Assembly: GCA_902595715.1 (NCBI GenBank)
Contig: CACJRI010000003.1
Location: forward strand, 5,583-69,582
Length of the DNA: 64,000 nucleotides
Direction of reading: 5' to 3'
Origin: an uncultured SAR86 cluster bacterium
Lineage (GTDB): Bacteria > Pseudomonadota > Gammaproteobacteria > Magnimaribacterales > AG-339-G14
In this document: one piece after another, positions 1 through 15,663 of the stretch
Layout: every line of letters begins with the position of its first letter
How positions within the stretch are numbered: the first letter of the stretch is position 1
The notes under the pieces: model-generated
The model's database searches: none
Seen by the model: only the letters and a program-made list of their open reading frames with translations
What the model was told of the DNA's origin: nothing
Made by a program: the position numbers and the translations under genes

Positions 1-1291
1 AAAACATTCTCTTGGCAGAAAATTTATAGGCTTCAATTCTGTCAAATCCCTCGGCCATTTTTCTATCAGCATATTCAACTACCACAACACAGCCATCAAT
101 TAACATTCCTAGGGATATCAATAACCCGAAACACACCATAAAATTAAAACTGTAATCTATTGCAGCTAAAAAAATTGAAGCGAAAAGAAAGCAGGTAGGG
201 ATTGCACCCGCAACCATGGTTGATGACCTCAAGCCCATGGTTCCAACAACAATGGTCATTACTAAAATCAAAGCAGTAAGAATGTTGCCGCCTAGTTCTC
301 CAACCATCATAGAAGACCAACCGGTCCTGTCTTGGGTAATCACTATTTCTACCCCATTAGGTAAATTAGGACGAAATTGGTCTAGAACGTAATTTACTTT
401 TGCTGCAGCAACTACTTCTTTGGCATCCTGTCTTTTCATGACAGAAAGGGTAACGGAATCTTTCCCGTTTACTCTCGAAAAGGAGTCTTTATCCTTGAAG
501 GTCCTTTTCAAAGAAACTAAATCCTTAAGAGTAATGACCTTTCCGTTGTTTTCTATGATTGGGATGTTCTCAACATCCGTGACATTCTCAAAAACAGAAG
601 GGACTAATACAGAAAACTTACCAGTCGATGATCTTAAGTCTCCTGCAGGGATTGCCCGATTAGCATCTCCAATGGCATTATAGAGATCTCTTGGAGAGAC
701 GTTATAGCTTTCAAGTTTGGTTTTATCTATTAAGGCCTCTAATAAGTCATCAGGAACTCCTCTTAACTGCGCCTCTAAAACATCTGGAATAGCCTCTACT
801 GCAGTTTGAAGCTCTCTGGCAAAAGCCAAAAGTTCTCGCTGACTTGCAGAACCAGAAATTAAGTTTATATCTAATATTGGATACTCATCCAAAGTGAATT
901 CTTTTACCACAGGATCTTCTGATTCTGATGGTAAATCTTGCTTAGTTTCATCAATCAGGTTCCTAACATCTTTAACAGCTTCATCTTTTGAATATTCAAC
1001 TGGAAATTCTAAAATAATATAAGACATGTTTTGTCTGCTGTAAGATTGAAGATCTACTAATTCATCTACGGTCTTTAACTTTTGCTCTAATGGTCTAGTA
1101 ACGAGCCTTTCAGCATCCTGAGCAGAGACACCATCGTAATAAGTAGAGACAAATACATATGGAATATTAATGTCTGAATAGGCTGAAGCCGGTATTTGTA
1201 TGATTGAAGTAAATCCCCAGACTAATATGAAGGTTAAGAAGGTGAATGTAGCCTTGTAGCGATCTACAAAAAAATCAATTAATGTTTTCAT
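1..1291 (-). CDS. RND (AcrB/HAE1-type) efflux permease, N-terminal ~430 codons; the 3' end lies beyond the window start
   Basis: Minus-strand frame is open from the ATG at 1291-1289 to the window edge, so it is absent from the ORF track. My translation starts MKTLIDFFVDRYKATFTFLTFILVWGFTSIIQIPASAYSDINIPYVFVSTYYDGVSAQDAERLVTRPLEQKL. This is the typical TM1 plus first periplasmic porter loop of RND pumps. The start overlaps the stop of the upstream adaptor gene by 17 nt. Confidence 0.85.
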   Translation of the reverse strand, partial: MKTLIDFFVDRYKATFTFLTFILVWGFTSIIQIPASAYSDINIPYVFVSTYYDGVSAQDAERLVTRPLEQKLKTVDELVDLQSYSRQNMSYIILEFPVEYSKDEAVKDVRNLIDETKQDLPSESEDPVVKEFTLDEYPILDINLISGSASQRELLAFARELQTAVEAIPDVLEAQLRGVPDDLLEALIDKTKLESYNVSPRDLYNAIGDANRAIPAGDLRSSTGKFSVLVPSVFENVTDVENIPIIENNGKVITLKDLVSLKRTFKDKDSFSRVNGKDSVTLSVMKRQDAKEVVAAAKVNYVLDQFRPNLPNGVEIVITQDRTGWSSMMVGELGGNILTALILVMTIVVGTMGLRSSTMVAGAIPTCFLFASIFLAAIDYSFNFMVCFGLLISLGMLIDGCVVVVEYADRKMAEGFDRIEAYKFSAKRMF

Positions 1292-2330
1292 CAGTATTCA
1301 GTCTATAGTCAATTGCGATATCAACCTTTTCATTGTTATTTACATAGTCCTGACCGACAGTAATGATTCTTGAATTGAAAGGAAGACCAGTCACCCAAAC
1401 TCCTTTTTCTGTATCTTGAATGATTTCCACTTTGTAAAACTCAACAAGACTATCTTTGTTGACGACTCTTACGCCAATATCACCTGCCTCATCTAATCTT
1501 AGAATTGAAAGTGGAACTATATGAGCTGGCTCAGGAGTAGCAAAAATAACGACTTCAGCTGTTTGTCCATCTTTGATCTTGCCAAGTGGATTGGGAATAG
1601 AAATCTCAATGTCAAAAGTATGCATCATCTCATCTGCTGAAGAAGAGATAAAAGTAATTTGACCTTGAAACTCTTGTCCATCGTTGGTTATAACTTTGAC
1701 ACCGCTATCTTTTGTTAAATCTAGAAGTTCAGATTCAGAAATATCACCTGTAACCATCATAGGATCTAAATCCAGAAGGGTCGCGCAGGTAGAGCCGCGA
1801 CTTAGAAAATCTCCAACGTCCAAATCAATTTTATCTACTACACCATCAAACGGTGCTTTTATGCTTGCATAGTCTAATTCAAGTTTAGCTCTTTCATAAT
1901 TTGACTTTGCATTTTGCAGTTGTTTTGATGAATAAAGTTCTTCTTCGTAAAGTTTTTGTGCTGAATTAAAATCAAGCAATGCTTTATCAAAATTTGCTTG
2001 TCTTTCGGCAACAAACAAAGAACAGATAACATCGCCTTTTTTAACAAAAGTACCTTGGGCAATTGGTAAATCAATAATTTTCCCTGAGGTTTCTGATTTG
2101 ACTGATACTTTTTTATCAGCTTTGGTAAAACCTTTTACTACAATTTCTTTAGAGAAATTTTCTGCTTTTTGATCAATAACCCTAACTACAGCATCTTTTT
2201 TTTCAATCAATGCCTCAGGAGCCGGTTCTTGAACGAATAGACCAGAAACCATCCAGATAATTGCAAAACCAATGAAAATTGATGCCCACTCTAAATTGGA
2301 TCTGCTTAGAATCTTTGAAACAATACTCAT
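1275..2330 (-). CDS. RND efflux periplasmic adaptor (membrane fusion protein, HlyD/AcrA family)
   Basis: 351 aa. It has an N-terminal membrane anchor (WASIFIGFAIIWMVSGLF), a coiled-coil hairpin region (AERQANFDKALLDFNSAQKLYEEELYSSKQLQNAKSNYERAKLELDYASIKAPFDGVV) and a C-terminal beta-barrel-like region. It is translationally coupled to the RND permease. Confidence 0.85.
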   Translation of the reverse strand: MSIVSKILSRSNLEWASIFIGFAIIWMVSGLFVQEPAPEALIEKKDAVVRVIDQKAENFSKEIVVKGFTKADKKVSVKSETSGKIIDLPIAQGTFVKKGDVICSLFVAERQANFDKALLDFNSAQKLYEEELYSSKQLQNAKSNYERAKLELDYASIKAPFDGVVDKIDLDVGDFLSRGSTCATLLDLDPMMVTGDISESELLDLTKDSGVKVITNDGQEFQGQITFISSSADEMMHTFDIEISIPNPLGKIKDGQTAEVVIFATPEPAHIVPLSILRLDEAGDIGVRVVNKDSLVEFYKVEIIQDTEKGVWVTGLPFNSRIITVGQDYVNNNEKVDIAIDYRLNTDENIN

Positions 2331-2386
2331 TAAATAGTTCTCTCTTCTTTTATATAGAGGCGAGGGGCGATTATATCAAGGAAAAC

Positions 2387-2986
2387 CTATAAGTATTTCT
2401 TTTTTATTTTCTCCAATCTTAATTTTTGCAAATCACTGGATAGGGGCTTTTCTTCAGTAAATTCTTCTTTGATTTCAGGTAAAAGGAGCAGGTTTTCCTT
2501 AAATTCACTCTCGTCCAATATTTCCTCATAGGCTTCTAAGAACGCCTTTTTGATATCAAACTCAGACTCTGTTTTTAACCTATACCAACCTACTTTTGCA
2601 CCGGCATGATAAACAAATGGATGGGACCAATTAAAATTCAAAGGATTTGTTTCTCCCAAAGAACTTGCCTCAATATAAGCAGCATTTGGAGAGGGGATAT
2701 TTTGTTCAAGCAGTTTTAATTCTTTAATTTGATTTAAAACTGCGCTCAAAGAAGGCAAATATTTTGAAGTTTCTATGATTTTATCTATTGCTCTGAATAC
2801 TATCTCATTTTGATATTTTTCTAGCTTCGCGAGCCAAAGTTGCTTAGCTAAGGTTAGAGTTTCTTCATCAGGAAATGCTTTATGAAATTGATTGTGAAAA
2901 GTGATTTCCAATTCAGCAAAAATAAGATTAATGAGCTCTACTTGGCTTTTAGGTATTTTAATTTTTGAAGTTAACTGCCCATTCAT
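2387..2986 (-). CDS. lambda-P-like replication protein (putative replicative-helicase loader family)
   Basis: 199 aa. The region INLIFAELEITFHNQFHKAF...AKQLWLAKLEKY...AIDKIIETSKYLPSLSAVLNQI, followed by IPSPNAAYIEAS...WSHPFVYHAGAKVGWY, follows the layout I remember for phage lambda P family proteins. It overlaps the upstream DnaT-like gene by 29 nt. Assignment is by recalled similarity only. Confidence 0.5.
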   Translation of the reverse strand: MNGQLTSKIKIPKSQVELINLIFAELEITFHNQFHKAFPDEETLTLAKQLWLAKLEKYQNEIVFRAIDKIIETSKYLPSLSAVLNQIKELKLLEQNIPSPNAAYIEASSLGETNPLNFNWSHPFVYHAGAKVGWYRLKTESEFDIKKAFLEAYEEILDESEFKENLLLLPEIKEEFTEEKPLSSDLQKLRLEKIKKKYL

Positions 2987-3914
2987 GATCTTTTAATCTT
3001 GATAATACATTTTTTGTGTTCCCATGTTTAGCTTTCCATTTAAACTTTACGTGTTGGATAAACTTTGAATTCCAGCAATTTCGCATTTCTTTCGTCTCAA
3101 GCCAATATAATTTAAATTCTGGTATTTGAGATACGGCAAAACTTTTATTTATTTTTGCTAAATTCAAAACATCAAAACAATCTTCTGAGGGTTTCCAATC
3201 TTTATGCATTCTAGTTGGTTTCTTCACCACAGAAATCAAATTTTGATACCTGACCCATTGATTTTTAATATGATTAAGAAATTTAGTATTCCAGGAATCT
3301 GACGCTGTCTTCCTTTCACTCCAATATAAGATAAATTCTGGTAAGGCATCGGTGATAAATTTTTCTTCTATTTCGGCATGTTTTAATATTTGTAATGCCT
3401 CTTTTGAAGGTCTCCAATTTTTTTGAATTGGTTTCATTTTAGATGTTTTATTTAATTTTTCTTCTTCGGCTCTCCATTCTTTTAAAAGATATTTAAGAAA
3501 CTTATAGTCCCAAGAAAAGCTTTTATCCTTTCGATCAGACCAATAAGTTCTAAATTCAGGAAGTTTATTTCTAATGAAGTCCTCAGAGATACCTAGACTT
3601 TTAGCTTCTTTCAAAATATTGTCCGAAGGAAGATATCCTTTAGAAATATTTTGCTTTCTCTCTGGAATAGTTTCTTTATTTTTAGATTTAAGACAAAAGG
3701 TATCTCTCGATGACTCTTCTATTAACTTAAGTTTAAGAAGTTTCTTTAGAACTTTAAGAATTTCCTCTTTTTCAATAAACGAAAGTTTGTCAATCAGCGA
3801 AGTTAAGTCTTGTTTAATTTCAGCTTTAAATATTTGAAGAACAATTGCTTCATTGAGACCAATGCTAAGGGCAATTTCTTTGTCAAAATTTAATAAATTT
3901 GATTTTTTTGCCAT
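2958..3914 (-). CDS. DnaT-like primosomal/replication protein with N-terminal HTH-like region and three tandem DnaT-C-like domains
   Basis: The ORF track starts it at 3956, which would overlap aroG by 38 nt. The in-frame ATG at 3914 (MAKKSNLLNFDKEIALSIGLNEAIVLQIF) leaves a 4-nt gap after the aroG stop and is more likely. There are three repeats of W/Y-x-P-S...(L/I)PEF..YW.......W..KF.......W. Confidence 0.5.
   Translation of the reverse strand: MAKKSNLLNFDKEIALSIGLNEAIVLQIFKAEIKQDLTSLIDKLSFIEKEEILKVLKKLLKLKLIEESSRDTFCLKSKNKETIPERKQNISKGYLPSDNILKEAKSLGISEDFIRNKLPEFRTYWSDRKDKSFSWDYKFLKYLLKEWRAEEEKLNKTSKMKPIQKNWRPSKEALQILKHAEIEEKFITDALPEFILYWSERKTASDSWNTKFLNHIKNQWVRYQNLISVVKKPTRMHKDWKPSEDCFDVLNLAKINKSFAVSQIPEFKLYWLETKEMRNCWNSKFIQHVKFKWKAKHGNTKNVLSRLKDHEWAVNFKN
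3036..3635 (-). repeat. three tandem intragenic repeats with an exact 73-codon period (DnaT-C-like domain x3)
   Basis: The repeat units start at residues Y108, W181 and W254 (numbering from the M at 3956). Unit 1: YLPSDNILKEAKSLGISEDFIRNKLPEFRTYWSDRKDKSFSWDYKFLKYLLKEW. Unit 2: WRPSKEALQILKHAEIEEKFITDALPEFILYWSERKTASDSWNTKFLNHIKNQW. Unit 3: WKPSEDCFDVLNLAKINKSFAVSQIPEFKLYWLETKEMRNCWNSKFIQHVKFKW. Confidence 0.8.
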
Positions 3915-3918
3915 AAAC

Positions 3919-4989
3919 TTAGGCAGATCGCTTAAGTTTTTCTCTCCTTGCATCAACGGCTTTAGCCAAAAGTTTCAGCATCACCTCAGTATCTTTCCAA
4001 CTAACGCAAGCATCAGTAACACTTTGACCATATTTAAGGTTTTTAAGAGAATCTATTTTTTGGTTTCCTTCCTCAAGATTGCTTTCAATCATAACTCCAA
4101 AAATACTTTTATCTCCTGATGCAATTTGATCAGAGATATCTTTATTCACAATGAGTTGTTTTTTGAACTGCTTTTGACTATTTCCATGAGACATATCAAC
4201 CATAATTTTTTGTGTTAAATCAGATTTTTTTAAGTCTTCATTAACTTTTTGTATATCTTTTTTTGAATAATTTGGGGTCTCTCCACCTCTGAGTATCACG
4301 TGACAATCTTTATTTCCAGAGGAGTTGAAAATTGCAGATTTTCCTTCTTTTGTAATGGAAAGAAAAATATGGCTGTTTGAAGAGGAGCCAATTGCATCCA
4401 AGGCAACTTGAATAGAACCGTTAGTAGAATTTTTAAATCCAACTGGGCAAGATAAGCCTGAGGCTAACTCTCTGTGTATTTGGCTTTCTGTAGTTCTGGC
4501 ACCAATTGCACCCCACGAAATCAAGTCTGAAATGTATTGTGGAGTGATCATATCCAAAAACTCAGTTCCTGCAGGCAAACCCAATTCATTAATTTTTAAC
4601 AAAAGCTTTCTAGCCACCTTAAGCCCTTTATTGACATCGTAACTATTATCCAAATCTGGATCGTTGATGAGACCTTTCCAACCCACAGTGGTTCTTGGTT
4701 TTTCAAAATAAACTCTCATCACTATTTTGAGTTGGTCTTTTAGATCTTTTTCTAGAGTTTTAAGTTTTTTTGCATACTCGATTGCTGCTTTTGGATCGTG
4801 TATTGAGCAAGGACCAACAACCACAACCAATTTATCTTCTTTACCATGGAGAATATCTGAAATTTCATTTCTGGAGTTAAAAACTAGCTCTGAAACTTTT
4901 TCTGAAATTGGAAGTTTTTCAATAACTTCAACAGGAGGAGAGACCTCCATCAGACCTGTTATTCTGGTATTATCCGTTAAATATTTCAT
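3919..4989 (-). CDS. aroG: 3-deoxy-7-phosphoheptulonate (DAHP) synthase, class I
   Basis: 356 aa. LVVVVGPCSIHDP...YFEKPRTTVGWKGLINDP...GARTTESQIHRELASGLSCPVGFKN are hallmark class I DAHP synthase stretches. The isozyme (F/G/H) cannot be determined from sequence alone. Confidence 0.9.
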   Translation of the reverse strand: MKYLTDNTRITGLMEVSPPVEVIEKLPISEKVSELVFNSRNEISDILHGKEDKLVVVVGPCSIHDPKAAIEYAKKLKTLEKDLKDQLKIVMRVYFEKPRTTVGWKGLINDPDLDNSYDVNKGLKVARKLLLKINELGLPAGTEFLDMITPQYISDLISWGAIGARTTESQIHRELASGLSCPVGFKNSTNGSIQVALDAIGSSSNSHIFLSITKEGKSAIFNSSGNKDCHVILRGGETPNYSKKDIQKVNEDLKKSDLTQKIMVDMSHGNSQKQFKKQLIVNKDISDQIASGDKSIFGVMIESNLEEGNQKIDSLKNLKYGQSVTDACVSWKDTEVMLKLLAKAVDARREKLKRSA

Positions 4990-5018
4990 TTGACCGTTGA
5001 TTTTATCTCTTCTAAATT
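4990..5018 (+). promoter_or_regulatory. possible sigma70-type promoter for nadE (TTGACC-17 nt-TAAATT)
   Basis: In the 52-nt divergent aroG/nadE spacer, TTGACC sits at 4990-4995 and TAAATT at 5013-5018, with 17-nt spacing, 24 nt upstream of the nadE ATG. AT-rich DNA produces such matches by chance. Confidence 0.25.
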
Positions 5019-5041
5019 TAAATTAAAGCTTAAATTAAGCA

Positions 5042-6655
5042 ATGTACAAAATAAAATTAGTTCAAGAAAACCCAAAAGTTGGCGATATTCAGGGTAATTT
5101 AGACCTTGCAAAGTCTCATATTATTAAAGCTAAAAATAAAGGCATAGATCTAATCCTATTCTCTGAAATGTTTTTAACAGGCTATCCGCCTGAAGATTTA
5201 CTTTTAAGACAAGATTTTTTAGATGAAAGCGAGAGATGTTCTAATGAGCTCAAAGAATTATCCAAAGAAATATCTATAATCATTGGATGTCCTTCTCGTG
5301 AAGGAGAAAATATTTTTAACTCTGCACTCTATTATCAAAATGGAAAAATTGTTAAAAATTACAAAAAGCAAATCCTTCCTAATTACAAAGAATTCGATGA
5401 AAAAAGATACTTTTTGAAGGGAGAAACCCATGAAGTTTTTGAAGATGGAGGCCTTAAGTTTGGTATTTCAATTTGTGAGGATATTTGGAATGAAGATTTT
5501 ACAAAAGAAGTATGCAATCAAGACATAGATTTTCTCATAAATTTAAGTGCATCGCCTTTCACACTAGATAAAAAGAATCTTAGAGAAGAAATGCTATGCA
5601 ATTATTTTGCTAAATTTAAAAAACCAATAATTTATGTTAATCAGGTCGGCGGACAAGACGAGCTTGTATTTGATGGAAGTTCTTTAATAGTCGATTCAAA
5701 AGATACCGTGAAGCGTTTGAAGAGTTTTGAAACAGATCAGGCTGTGATTGAAATAGATGACAATATTATTTCTACAAATTTACAAGGAGATAAATTAAGC
5801 GAGGTGGGAGATATTTCTGATATTTATAAAGCTTTGGTTTTAGGAACAAGAGACTATGTTCAAAAAAATAATTTTAAAGGAATATTAATTGGTTCATCTG
5901 GAGGAATTGATTCTGCTTTAACTGCAGCAATTGCCTCTGATGCATTAGGTCCTGAAAAGGTAAATACAGTTATGATGCCTTTTAAATACACAGCAGACAT
6001 CAGTATTGAAGATGCCCAACAGCTAGCAGAAAATCTTGGCTTCTCTCACGAAGTAATTCCGATATCTGAGATGTTTTCTGCGTTTAAAAATTCTTTGGAC
6101 AGCAAGTTAGAGCCTAGAGAATTTGATAAAACCGAAGAAAATCTCCAATCAAGATGCAGAGGAGTAACTCTGATGGCTCTTTCAAATAATTTAGGATATT
6201 TGGTTCTCACAACAGGTAATAAAAGTGAAGCAGCTGTCGGCTATTCAACTTTATATGGCGATACTGCAGGAGGATTTTCTGTACTAAGAGATGTTTACAA
6301 AACAACAGTATATGAGTTGGCAAACTACAGAAATTCTCTTGGCAAAGCCATTCCGCAGAGAATAATTGATAGAGAACCCAGTGCAGAGTTATCAGAAGAT
6401 CAAAAAGACAGTGATTCACTACCGACTTATGATCTACTAGATCCAATCATTGAAGCTTATGTTGAGGACGATAAAACTAAAAAAGAAATTATTGACTCAG
6501 GTTTTAATTCAAACGATGTACAAAAGGTTATTGATTTAATTAACTTTAATGAATACAAAAGAAGGCAAGTTCCACTTGGAATAAAGATTTCAGCAAGAAA
6601 TTTTGGTAAAGACAGAAGATATCCAATTACAAACTTCTGGAAAGACAATATATAG
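5042..6655 (+). CDS. nadE: glutamine-dependent NAD+ synthetase (N-terminal nitrilase/CN-hydrolase domain + NAD synthetase domain)
   Basis: 537 aa. The CN-hydrolase part has LILFSEMFLTGYPPEDL and FGISICEDIW. The synthetase part has the PP-loop GSSGGIDSALTA and a TTGNKSEAAVGYSTLYGD motif. Confidence 0.92.
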   Translation: MYKIKLVQENPKVGDIQGNLDLAKSHIIKAKNKGIDLILFSEMFLTGYPPEDLLLRQDFLDESERCSNELKELSKEISIIIGCPSREGENIFNSALYYQNGKIVKNYKKQILPNYKEFDEKRYFLKGETHEVFEDGGLKFGISICEDIWNEDFTKEVCNQDIDFLINLSASPFTLDKKNLREEMLCNYFAKFKKPIIYVNQVGGQDELVFDGSSLIVDSKDTVKRLKSFETDQAVIEIDDNIISTNLQGDKLSEVGDISDIYKALVLGTRDYVQKNNFKGILIGSSGGIDSALTAAIASDALGPEKVNTVMMPFKYTADISIEDAQQLAENLGFSHEVIPISEMFSAFKNSLDSKLEPREFDKTEENLQSRCRGVTLMALSNNLGYLVLTTGNKSEAAVGYSTLYGDTAGGFSVLRDVYKTTVYELANYRNSLGKAIPQRIIDREPSAELSEDQKDSDSLPTYDLLDPIIEAYVEDDKTKKEIIDSGFNSNDVQKVIDLINFNEYKRRQVPLGIKISARNFGKDRRYPITNFWKDNI

Positions 6656-13140: not shown

Positions 13141-15663
13141 ATGGACGACATAACAGAAGATGTAATTCCCGTTAATATTACGGATGAATTAAAGAGTTCT
13201 TATATGGATTATGCAATGAGCGTAATCGTTGGGAGAGCTTTGCCAGATGCCAGAGATGGCTTAAAACCAGTTCACAGAAGAACTCTTTATGCCATGTTCA
13301 AACTGAATAACGAATGGAATAGACCGCATTTGAAATCAGCAAGAATTGTTGGCGAGGTGATGGGAAAATATCATCCTCATGGAGATTCAGCAATCTATCA
13401 GACGGTTGTTAGAATGGCTCAGGAATTTAGTCTGCGTTATCCCCTAGTTGATGGCCAAGGGAATTTCGGTTCGATGGATGGCGATGGCGCAGCAGCCATG
13501 AGATACACCGAAGCAAGGATGGCAAAAATTAGTAATGCTCTTCTCAATGATATCAATAAAGAAACTGTAGATTATGTTGAAAATTACGATGGCACTGAAC
13601 TAATTCCTGAAGTACTTCCAGCTTCATATCCCAATTTGTTGGTTAACGGATCTTCTGGAATAGCTGTAGGACTGGCTACCAATATTCTTCCTCATAATCT
13701 AAGCGAGACAATTGACGGCGCTCTAGCAATTTTAAAAAATCCAGAAATATCCATTGATGAATTAGTAACAATAATCCCAGGACCTGATTTTCCAACAGGA
13801 GGAATAATTAATGGAAAGGCTGGTGCTATTGAGGCTGCTAAAACTGGGAGAGGCAAAGTAGTTCTTAGAGCTAAAGTAGAAATTGAAAATGAGAAAAATG
13901 AAAAAAGTAGATTAATCATTTCTGAAATTCCTTATCAAGTAAATAAAGCCAATCTGGTAGAAAAGATTGCAGACCTTTCAAAAGATAAAAAAATTGACGG
14001 CATTTCAGAAATTCGAGATGAATCAGACAGAGAAGGGGTAAGAATAGTAATAGATCTCAAAGCAGGTCAAAACCCTGAAGTGATACTTAATAATCTTTAC
14101 GCTCAATCGCAATTGGAAACCTCTTTTGGTATAAACAACGTCGCTATTGTTGATAGAGTTCCAAAAGTTTTAAACTTAAAGGAACTTCTTGAAATATTTT
14201 TAAGCCATAGAAGATCTGTTGTTTCTAGAAGAACAGCTTTTGATTTAGCAAAGTCAAAAGATAGGGGTCACATTTTAGAAGGCCTGACAATTGCCCTTTC
14301 AAACATTGACCCAATAATTGAATTAATAAAAAAATCTAAAGATCCAAATGAGGCTAAAAGCAAGCTATTGGCTAAAAAATGGAAATCTACTTTGATAAAC
14401 AATTTATTGAAAAAAGCAGGCTCTATTGATACTCGGCCTGATGATATTTTTGAAGAATTTGGTCTTTCAGGTTCCAGCTATAAACTTTCCTCTAAACAAG
14501 CTCAAGCAATTTTAGATTTAAGACTTCAGAGGCTTACTGGCTTAGAGCAAGACAATTTAATAAACGAGTATGAAGAGGTTCTTCAGGATATAGCTGCTTT
14601 GAATGAAATATTAGAAAATCCCGAAAGGCTGCAAGAAGTTATTGAAGAAGAACTATTATCCGTTAAAGACGAATTTGGCGATGAAAGAAAAACTCCCATC
14701 GAAGATAAATTAGATCTATCGACTGAAGATTTAATTAAGCCTGAAGATATGGTTGTTACCATTTCGAATATGGGCTATGCAAAAACTCAACCTCTTGAGG
14801 TATATCAATCTCAAAGAAGAGGAGGAATGGGCAAAACCGCTGCATCAGTTAAAGACGAAGATTTTGTCGAACAATTGATAGTAGCTAATACTCATAGAAC
14901 CCTTTTATGTTTTTCAAATCTAGGAAAGGTTTATTGGCTTAAAGTTTACGAAATTCCTCAAGCTTCAAGAACCGCAAAAGGAAGACCTCTTATAAATTTA
15001 ATTGATTTAGATGAATCAGAGAGAGTAACTAGCCTCTTAGATGTTGAGTCTTTTGAGGGTGAGGCCTATGTATTCATGGCAACACAAAATGGGATAGTTA
15101 AAAAAACCCCCCTGTCAGAATTTAAGAAGCCAAGAAAAAATGGTAAGCGAGCAATAAAACTCGACGATAATGATGAGCTTGTCGGAACTCTATTAACTGA
15201 TGGCAGTGCTGATTTAATGGTAGTTTCTAATGCTGGAAAAGCAGTTTTTTTCAATGAGGTAGATGCTAGATCCATGGGCAGAGACACTCGGGGAGTGAAA
15301 GGAATTTCCTTAGGCGGAGATCAAAAAGTTATTTCTTTACTAAAACCCTCTAAAGAATCGGAGATATTAACTGTTTCAGAAAATGGGTATGGAAAAAGAT
15401 CAAAAGTTAACGATTTTAGAAAAACCAAAAGAGGTGCTAAAGGCGTTATAGCCATGCAGACTTCTGATAGGAATGGAGAACTAATTTCTGCTAAAGAAGT
15501 TAGCGAAATGGATGAAGTAATTCTTATTACCAACAAAGGAATGCTTGTAAGAACCAAAGTATCAGAAATTAGTTTGATTGGAAGGAATACTCAGGGAGTA
15601 AGAGTGATCAAACTAAAAGAAGATGAGGCTCTCAACGGACTTGCATTAGCTATCGATTCGTAA
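13141..15663 (+). CDS. gyrA: DNA gyrase subunit A
   Basis: 840 aa. [16 protein letters not shown], the [21 protein letters not shown] and the active-site [10 protein letters not shown] are present, followed by C-terminal beta-pinwheel repeats. Confidence 0.97.

Follow-up and report, generated by a model that had tools for sequence, protein, structure and literature searches.

A chromosomal dopC-dopE gene pair with tandem DnaT-type domains at a conserved housekeeping locus of SAR86 bacteria

In a stretch of 64,000 nucleotides (nt) from an uncultured bacterium of the SAR86 cluster (GenBank assembly GCA_902595715.1, contig CACJRI010000003.1, positions 5,583 to 69,582), which we will henceforth refer to as the window, we found two overlapping minus-strand genes, 2958..3914 and 2387..2986, whose two-gene architecture matches that of the published pair dopC-dopE. 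We consider it likely that they are the SAR86 orthologues of that pair, i.e., a lambdoid-phage initiator/loader module that was turned into a resident chromosomal operon and loads the replicative helicase DnaB as proposed. The pair is not new: it belongs to an already published system, and SAR86 is a clade that the original paper did not cover. That paper (Brézellec et al. 2017, Genome Biol Evol 9:1561; PMC5509034) described dopC-dopE in Cellvibrionales and Oceanospirillales as a resident pair, located outside prophages and away from the replication origin, in which dopC encodes a helix-turn-helix (HTH) N-terminus and a C-terminal domain of DnaT. Across the Cellvibrionales and the subset of Oceanospirillales with neither dciA nor dnaC/dnaI, dopC always preceded the lambda-P-like dopE, dopE was present exactly where dciA and dnaC/dnaI were missing, and the authors proposed the pair as a third kind of replicative-helicase ‘matchmaker’ (PMC5509034). 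DopC-DopE would accordingly join DciA and DnaC/DnaI as a third type of loader for the bacterial replicative helicase, and SAR86, an ecologically dominant group with streamlined genomes, is among the most abundant bacterial clades of the surface ocean. Later papers merely cite the 2017 DopE proposal, once each, and we found no paper linking SAR86 with DciA.

The first gene, dopC (2958..3914, minus strand; stop codon at 2958-2960), encodes a protein of 318 amino acids (aa) when read from the ATG at 3914 (open reading frame (ORF) list and PF17948); the residue numbers of its domains follow a longer, 331-aa form. The Pfam model of the DnaT DNA-binding domain (PF17948) matches DopC three times (E 1.4e-61, 204.6 bits vs a cut-off of 25), and a comparison of the protein with itself gave a single sharp peak at a lag of 73 residues (BLOSUM62 sum 168; next best lag, -9), each of the three repeat units opening with W/Y-x-P-S. 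The AlphaFold2 (AF2) model of DopC, with a mean predicted local distance difference test (pLDDT) score of 78.6, has a winged helix at its N-terminal end and then, in tandem, three DnaT-type three-helix bundles, which coincide with the Pfam matches and the self-comparison: repeat 1 at 3456..3635 (residues 107-166), repeat 2 at 3240..3416 (residues 180-238) and repeat 3 at 3018..3197 (residues 253-312), all on the minus strand. A preliminary description of the window, made from the sequence and its ORFs, had read the N-terminus as HTH-like and the rest as three copies, with an exact 73-residue period, of a pattern resembling the C-terminal single-stranded DNA (ssDNA)-binding domain of E. coli DnaT; all three features are borne out by the model, the lag-73 peak and Pfam matches far above cut-off. 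The aromatic and basic residues by which DnaT contacts ssDNA are conserved as well. Specifically, F124, Y127, W128, W140 and K143 of E. coli DnaT are identical in all three DopC repeats in our alignment, and F124, Y127, W128 and K143 have been reported to contact ssDNA, mutation of Y127, W128 or K143 lowering binding (PMC4132743). DopC is thus predicted from its sequence to bind ssDNA.

Three detectable repeats were found at 79 of 80 genomic loci, including those of Cellvibrionaceae, Marinimicrobium and Porticoccaceae, and in 112 of 121 database homologues, and the 73/73-residue spacing is preserved in most family members. This constant spacing suggests a geometric constraint. The preliminary description had presented the pair as an analogue of E. 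coli dnaT-dnaC with a lambda-P-type loader and a triplicated DnaT domain; the architecture stands, and the idea that triplication is peculiar to this locus does not, three repeats being the norm of the family. The tandem arrangement therefore refines the 2017 description, which speaks of ‘a domain’ of DnaT where we find three copies (two in some lineages), and is not a new kind of protein. What we add to that description is the triple set of DnaT bundles at fixed 73-residue spacing with their ssDNA-contact residues intact. In some SAR86 lineages (L018, P0028), repeat 1 has degenerated. In two SAR86-like marine lineages, which share the locus found in the window (described below), DopC is 254-277 aa long and carries two DnaT repeats at a spacing of 71 residues (L084:9205-10035, L087:5247-6080 and L089:7079-7843). 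In one database protein of 316 aa (P0019), a TonB-plug domain (PF07715) is joined to a stretch that shares 94% identity with a third of the window DopC; the protein is probably a chimera of assembly or gene calling.

Despite its DnaT-type domains, DopC is not an orthologue of DnaT: its N-terminus is a winged helix, it has three C-terminal domains instead of one, and its profile matches to solved DnaT chains are confined to the DnaT C-terminal domain, which is all that the two proteins share. E. coli DnaT (PDB 4ou6, 4ou7, 9zbu) oligomerises through its own N-terminal domain and docks on PriA and PriB, whereas DopC has the winged helix instead and its C-terminal domains are covalently linked. 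The two systems nonetheless agree in gene order, since in E. coli, too, a gene for a DnaT C-terminal domain lies immediately upstream of a phage-derived DnaB loader; the adjacency of dnaT and dnaC, mentioned in the preliminary description, is real. The loaders themselves differ, E. coli DnaC being an AAA+ protein and DopE an all-alpha protein of the lambda P type, and no Pfam match to AAA+ or IstB was found in DopC or DopE at E <= 1. Neither protein has a match in NCBIfam.

The winged-helix domain of DopC (residues 25-88; 3690..3881, minus strand; AF2 pLDDT 77-89) retrieved only generic winged-helix matches with Foldseek (Z-alpha, MarR, cullin WHB; E >= 0.1). In the 2017 paper the N-terminus of DopC is described as similar to lambda O/HTH_36, and this similarity was not reproduced: no member of our DopC alignment (A1) matched HTH_36 (PF13730) at E <= 0.01, and the window DopC had no match to it at E <= 1. 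The ‘O-derived’ element of the published account is best read as a positional analogy combined with a generic winged helix. DopC does match, through its DnaT domain, two groups of phage ‘replication initiation protein’, PHROGs 1408 and 1032, which by this shared sequence are a more direct relative of DopC than lambda O. These phage initiators likewise carry a DnaT-like domain in their C-terminal part and are a likely ancestral stock for DopC; they differ in having a single DnaT domain (the match covers 26% of DopC), as the phage relatives of DopC do, and unlike N-terminal domains. The closest phage relatives of DopC are annotated as ‘replication initiation’ or ‘DnaD-like primosome initiator’. 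In one of them, Stenotrophomonas phage StM171 (L081; MZ611865.1 14426-15292; QYW06371.1), the gene for the single DnaT-like domain is followed by rusA and not by a P-like loader, so an O/P-type pairing is not universal among phage initiators with a DnaT domain.

After repeat 3, DopC ends in a C-terminal motif, R-L-x-D-x-E-W-A (2961..3008, minus strand), the Trp of which (W325) is invariant across the family in alignment A1. The motif is modelled with low pLDDT as disordered, and it is retained both by the two-repeat proteins and by the DopC of a SAR86 clade in which dopE is missing at the locus (type B, below). That type B keeps the motif argues against its being no more than a docking site for the body of DopE.

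The second gene, dopE (2387..2986, minus strand), encodes a protein of 199 aa that we interpret as a putative DnaB helicase loader of the lambda P type, as the preliminary description had suspected from its resemblance to lambda P. DopE matches PHROG 109, ‘P-like helicase loader’ (E 4.4e-15), and the Pfam family Phage_lambda_P (PF06992) is matched by 23 of the 23 DopE orthologues tested (best E 2.3e-12). A comparison of the DopE family profile with lambda P using hhalign gave a probability of 91.3% (E 9.5e-7, 174 columns), and a profile search of the PDB found the family colinear with lambda P (E 0.006); these profile alignments run colinearly over lambda P residues 32-228. In its AF2 model (pLDDT 79.2, predicted template modelling score 0.70) DopE has an all-alpha core and a confidently modelled C-terminal helix joined by a disordered linker, and the top three Foldseek matches to the model are all chains of lambda P bound to DnaB (probability 1.00, template modelling score 0.49-0.57; next match, probability 0.09). 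The globular core (residues 13-161; 2504..2950, minus strand; pLDDT 81-94; Foldseek matches to chains of 9oa1) corresponds to lambda P domains II-III. The linker (residues 162-183, pLDDT ~40) and the amphipathic helix that follows it (residues 184-198/199, pLDDT 81-87) together span 2390..2503 on the minus strand and align with lambda P residues ~206-228. This segment lies within domain IV, the C-terminal ‘lasso’ that binds the DH-LH (docking helix-linker helix) interface of DnaB (PMC12661323), and we regard the DopE tail as a putative DnaB-binding lasso. Such a tethered C-terminal helix, matching the DnaB-opening lasso of lambda P, is the second element that we add to the 2017 description.

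DopE thus shares with lambda P (PDB 8v9t, 9oa1; PMC12661323) a colinear all-alpha core, a flexible linker and a C-terminal helix at the lasso position, but the two proteins are only ~14-16% identical, and DopE is chromosomal, is not partnered by lambda O, and has a DnaB-binding role that is putative. The window protein is also shorter (199 vs 233 aa) and has no N-terminal lasso (domain I). In lambda P, the N-terminal 29 residues form this second lasso. In alignment A2, the DopE proteins of SAR86 have no N-terminal segment of ~30 residues (consensus M..xxLxxxxxxxxxxS..S.T.AG; the DopE N-terminus of the window lies at 2890-2986), unlike the DopE of Cellvibrionales, Porticoccaceae and Pseudohongiella, in which the segment is present.

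Several points weigh against identifying the pair as a helicase-loading module of this kind. The window DopE itself scores 23.1 bits against PF06992 (E 6.8e-5), just below the gathering cut-off of 26, and the Foldseek E-values that link its model to lambda P are only 0.02-0.04; because the protein’s own Pfam score lies under the cut-off, the lambda P assignment leans on its orthologues, the comparison of profiles and the search by fold. Similarly, the DopC profile matches solved DnaT chains in the PDB weakly (E 0.13-0.9), although the match to the Pfam DnaT model is very strong. Foldseek retrieved no DnaT with the small three-helix bundles of the DopC model, and given both of these results the DnaT assignment rests on Pfam and the mapping of individual residues. 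Lambda O and the DopC profile were aligned by hhalign with a probability of 0.2%, using a single-sequence template of low sensitivity. Three repeats are not obligatory, given two in two SAR86-like lineages and a degenerate repeat 1 elsewhere. No experimental work on DopC or DopE was found in the searchable literature. Finally, the key premise that the host has neither dciA nor dnaC/dnaI is an assumption, the sequence covered here being the 64 kb of the window and 10 kb on either side of the locus in relatives.

We found relatives of DopC in at least 575 species genomes (scan with the DopC alignment, one genome per species), including many SAR86 as well as Porticoccaceae, Cellvibrionaceae, Marinimicrobium, Gilvimarinus, Pseudohongiella and Spongiibacteraceae. 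The proteins closest to the window pair are from SAR86 cluster bacteria (the window DopE is 94% identical to a protein from a SAR86 metagenome-assembled genome), and the closest named relatives, Marinimicrobium, Gilvimarinus, Cellvibrio, Porticoccaceae and Pseudohongiella, have DopC proteins with the same layout of a winged helix and three DnaT domains. At all non-SAR86 loci with sequence past dopC, dopE directly follows, and adjacency or overlap of the two genes is preserved at all loci that have dopE. Within SAR86 the surroundings are shared too: the order scpBA/nadE and then aroG-dopC-dopE, followed by the genes for a membrane fusion protein (MFP) and a resistance-nodulation-division (RND) pump, is common to the window clade (L001-L009) and to deeper clades (L010, L013/25/28/32 and L018). 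The core of this arrangement, aroG-dopC-dopE-MFP-RND, occurs in two further SAR86-like lineages found through DopE representatives, and is preserved in at least six deep lineages of the SAR86 type. This synteny survives divergences at which AroG identity is just 60-75%, a tree of AroG and NadE separates the locus types cleanly, and reading frames are intact in all 80+ loci. The preliminary description had left it to be seen whether the pair recurs at the same place in relatives; it does, across deep SAR86 lineages and not sporadically. Outside SAR86, we detected none of aroG, nadE or the MFP gene at any dopC locus.

Both genes evolve under constraint. Among 10 close genomes, the ratio of nonsynonymous to synonymous substitution rates (dN/dS) was 0.10 for dopC and 0.083 for dopE, compared with 0.02-0.065 for housekeeping neighbours, and within dopC it was lowest in repeats 2 and 3 (0.04; 0.038 and 0.037 individually, vs 0.078 for repeat 1) and highest in the winged helix (0.17). 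The pair is under purifying selection, resident and vertically inherited at one locus. In SAR86-type marine bacteria it forms a fixed and strongly conserved housekeeping operon throughout, which extends the reach of the system beyond the two orders originally described. Together with gene order, the lambda-P-like DopE and the HTH- and DnaT-containing DopC, the chromosomal non-prophage context, lack of iterons or other origin features, vertical inheritance and purifying selection are all shared with the 2017 description (PMC5509034); among the differences are the SAR86 host, unsampled there, and the setting between aroG and an RND operon, which represents a fifth genomic context.

These observations bear directly on whether the pair has a cellular role at all. 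Both protein families are otherwise phage-borne (PHROGs 109, 1408 and 1032), and the genes could be the decaying remnant of a prophage with no function in the cell. The conserved synteny and low dN/dS effectively refute this, as do the intact frames and the lack of phage neighbours, and we consider it highly improbable. The genes flanking the pair encode DAHP (3-deoxy-D-arabino-heptulosonate 7-phosphate) synthase, NAD synthase, ScpA/ScpB, an RluB-like protein, an RND pump, PntAB and GyrA, and none of the genes near dopC-dopE is a phage gene, so that the preliminary description was right both in finding no phage genes around a pair set among housekeeping genes and in favouring a domesticated helicase-loading or restart module, essentially the published dopC-dopE hypothesis (PMC5509034), over a prophage remnant; the function itself we infer. 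It could also be argued that DopC, with its N-terminal winged helix and its SAR86 position between aroG and the RND operon, is a transcription factor for one of these neighbours. The pair occurs in unrelated contexts outside SAR86, however, and the winged helix is the least conserved part of the protein while the DnaT repeats are the most conserved, which leaves very little room for such a role. Slightly better placed, yet still improbable, is an anti-phage or competitive role, in which a domesticated lambda-P-like protein occupies DnaB or competes with phage loaders and is not the loader of the cell. It was speculated in the 2017 paper that phages which hijack DnaB could be hindered by a viral loader once it is domesticated (PMC5509034), and lambda P does out-compete DnaC for DnaB (PMC5509034, PMC12661323). 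Defence genes are typically patchy in distribution and mobile, in contrast to a pair inherited vertically at one housekeeping locus with a dN/dS of ~0.1.

We also asked whether the locus has the features of a replication origin. No family of iteron-like direct repeats was found within 2300-4100 and there was no cluster of DnaA boxes (23 DnaA-box-like 9-mers vs 18.7 expected), and on these grounds an origin at the locus was rejected. The sign of the GC skew changes near 5 kb, where it coincides with the divergent orientation of aroG and nadE. The absence of origin features near the locus agrees with a narrower role, in which DopC-DopE would only reload DnaB at abandoned forks, as an analogue of PriA/PriB/DnaT plus DnaC, with another factor acting at oriC; the 2017 authors named this option (PMC5509034), and E. 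coli DnaT, the sole characterised protein with the domain, serves replication restart and not initiation. Set against this, the published coincidence of dopE with missing dciA and dnaC/dnaI (PMC5509034) argues for the replacement of a general loader that serves both initiation and restart. We therefore regard restart alone as rather unlikely, and as a narrower version of the best explanation more than a true alternative to it.

Considering DopC-DopE as such a general loader, we propose the following mechanism, each step of which we infer. DopE, a candidate DnaB helicase loader by its sequence and predicted structure, would act like lambda P: its globular core would dock at DnaB subunit interfaces, and its C-terminal helix, carried on the flexible linker, would insert at the DH-LH junction between neighbouring DnaB subunits, opening the hexameric ring and letting ssDNA in. 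DopC would be the adaptor that supplies the DNA. In E. coli, a filament is built on lagging-strand ssDNA from DnaT C-terminal domains, each domain-domain interface holding two nucleotides; the mature preprimosome shows four of these domains (PMC13377028). Because DopC has three covalently linked DnaT domains at fixed spacing, it may represent a ready-made, covalently pre-assembled short filament of this kind, which would grip ssDNA where it becomes exposed, be it at an oriC melted by DnaA, on the lagging-strand template of a fork that has been abandoned, or both. Further contacts, with DNA or a protein partner, would come from the winged helix and the C-terminal Trp motif. DopE-DnaB would then be handed to the DopC-ssDNA complex, in the way that lambda P-DnaB is delivered to lambda O and, presumably, DnaC-DnaB to DnaT. 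It is the parallels with the DnaT filament and the lambda P lasso that lead us to propose this capture of ssDNA by DopC and its hand-over to a DopE-opened DnaB, and the division of labour between the two proteins would, by analogy, mirror those of lambda O/P and dnaT/dnaC.

Natural variants of the system (two repeats, as above, or a lasso-like tail on DopC) point to its indispensable parts, and are the third element that we add to the 2017 description. The second kind of variant is found in type B, a deep monophyletic clade of 16 SAR86 loci (L011, L014-L017, L019, L020, L022, L023, L026, L027, L039, L041, L043, L044 and L073; e.g., L017:9992-11080 and L015:9986-11023) in which nadE/aroG-dopC-MFP-RND is intact and dopE is missing at the locus, ~40-150 nt separating dopC from the MFP gene. 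The DopC proteins of this clade are 346-364 aa long, i.e., 30-45 residues longer, and end in a basic tail of ~20 residues of the form L-(E/K)-x-L-K-(K/E)-K-H-x-I (e.g., ...LEELKKKHLI or ...FKKLKEKHQI). This motif is also the C-terminal motif of SAR86 DopE (L-x-x-L-K-x-K-H-x-I), the segment aligned with the lambda P lasso; compare KKIKSKLEELKKKHLI in the DopC of type-B locus L017 with EKQIHLLEKLKKKHLI in the DopE of L028, a type-A locus. A short hidden Markov model (HMM) of the DopE tail, run with HMMER, gave no significant match to the type-B DopC tails (E 0.28 to >20). In an anchored BLOSUM ranking of 1696 ORFs, no C-terminus outside DopE scored above the type-B tails save that of one spurious ORF of 60 aa, and a C-terminal motif defined post hoc was found in 36 of 15,208 ORFs, these being 21 DopE of the SAR86 type and 15 type-B DopC. 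Taken as sequence evidence, this is suggestive of homology between the type-B DopC tail and the DopE tail, and is not proof of it.

The simplest reading is that type B arose by an in-frame deletion of the lambda-P-like body, which left the lasso on DopC. A DopE HMM found no match within 10 kb on either side of the type-B loci, and no relocated type-B dopE was seen: among the best 150 of 314 representatives, the AT-rich DopE clades with readable context all sat at the standard aroG-dopC-dopE locus of other SAR86-like lineages. Loss of dopE in type B is not proven. Should type-B genomes have no other loader, a winged helix, three DnaT domains and a lasso would constitute a new, minimal single-chain helicase loader. 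A more far-reaching version, that DopC-DopE is the sole helicase loading system of SAR86, that DopC is a pre-assembled ssDNA filament and that type B is its collapse into a single chain, we put forward tentatively, as less likely to hold than to fail. Further work would be best spent on the type-B fusion.

In the window itself, the ORFs of the two genes (2958..3956 and 2387..2986, minus strand) share 29 nt (2958-2986), the 3' end of dopC overlapping the 5' end of dopE, which makes their translational coupling likely. Directly upstream of dopC lies an aroG-type DAHP synthase gene (3919..4989, minus strand; PF00793, E 3.6e-99), a position that is syntenic across SAR86, and dopC-dopE is probably co-transcribed with it; the gap between the ATG at 3914 and the stop codon of aroG (3919-3921) is 4 nt. 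Downstream, 56 nt separate the dopE stop from the start, at 2330, of an RND efflux operon (1..2330, minus strand; Pfam matches), which comprises the MFP gene (1275-2330, minus strand; PF16576 and PF13437) and an AcrB-family pump gene (minus strand; PF00873) that starts near 1291 and continues beyond the edge of the window. The ORF list agrees in every respect with the arrangement first described, i.e., two minus-strand genes overlapping by 29 nt, 4 nt from the aroG stop if ATG 3914 is used and 56 nt from the RND operon.

Three candidate starts can be considered for dopC: TTG 3956, where the ORF opens, ATG 3953 (331 aa) and ATG 3914 (318 aa). Public gene calls are divided between the 331-aa form, which begins 35 nt into aroG, and the 318-aa form. 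We favour ATG 3914 as the probable true start, since the longer forms run into aroG and their added residues are modelled as disordered (pLDDT ~40) and are missing in other SAR86 clades, where dopC begins past the aroG stop; the disordered part comprises the N-terminal 18 residues of the long form. There is no Shine-Dalgarno-like sequence at a usable distance from either ATG 3953 or ATG 3914, an AAGGAG at 3944-3949 lying downstream of the former and ~29 nt upstream of the latter. No terminator-like site was found within 1200-5200, and promoter and terminator scans were uninformative, with results at or below shuffle expectation.

The genes of the 64-kb window are exclusively housekeeping and polysaccharide synthesis genes, and searches of its full length gave no tRNA and no Rfam family. 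From 10218 to 64000, ~44 consecutive ORFs of at least 150 aa lie on the plus strand and GC skew is positive throughout; the genes sampled there include pntAB, gyrA (13141-15663), rpsA, ggt and uvrC. Beyond ~29 kb the G+C content mostly drops to 0.28-0.33, and the genes sampled there resemble those for surface-polysaccharide synthesis (UDP-glucose dehydrogenase, DegT aminotransferase, acyltransferase-3/SGNH); an 866-aa CotH-like protein and an asparagine synthase are encoded alongside.

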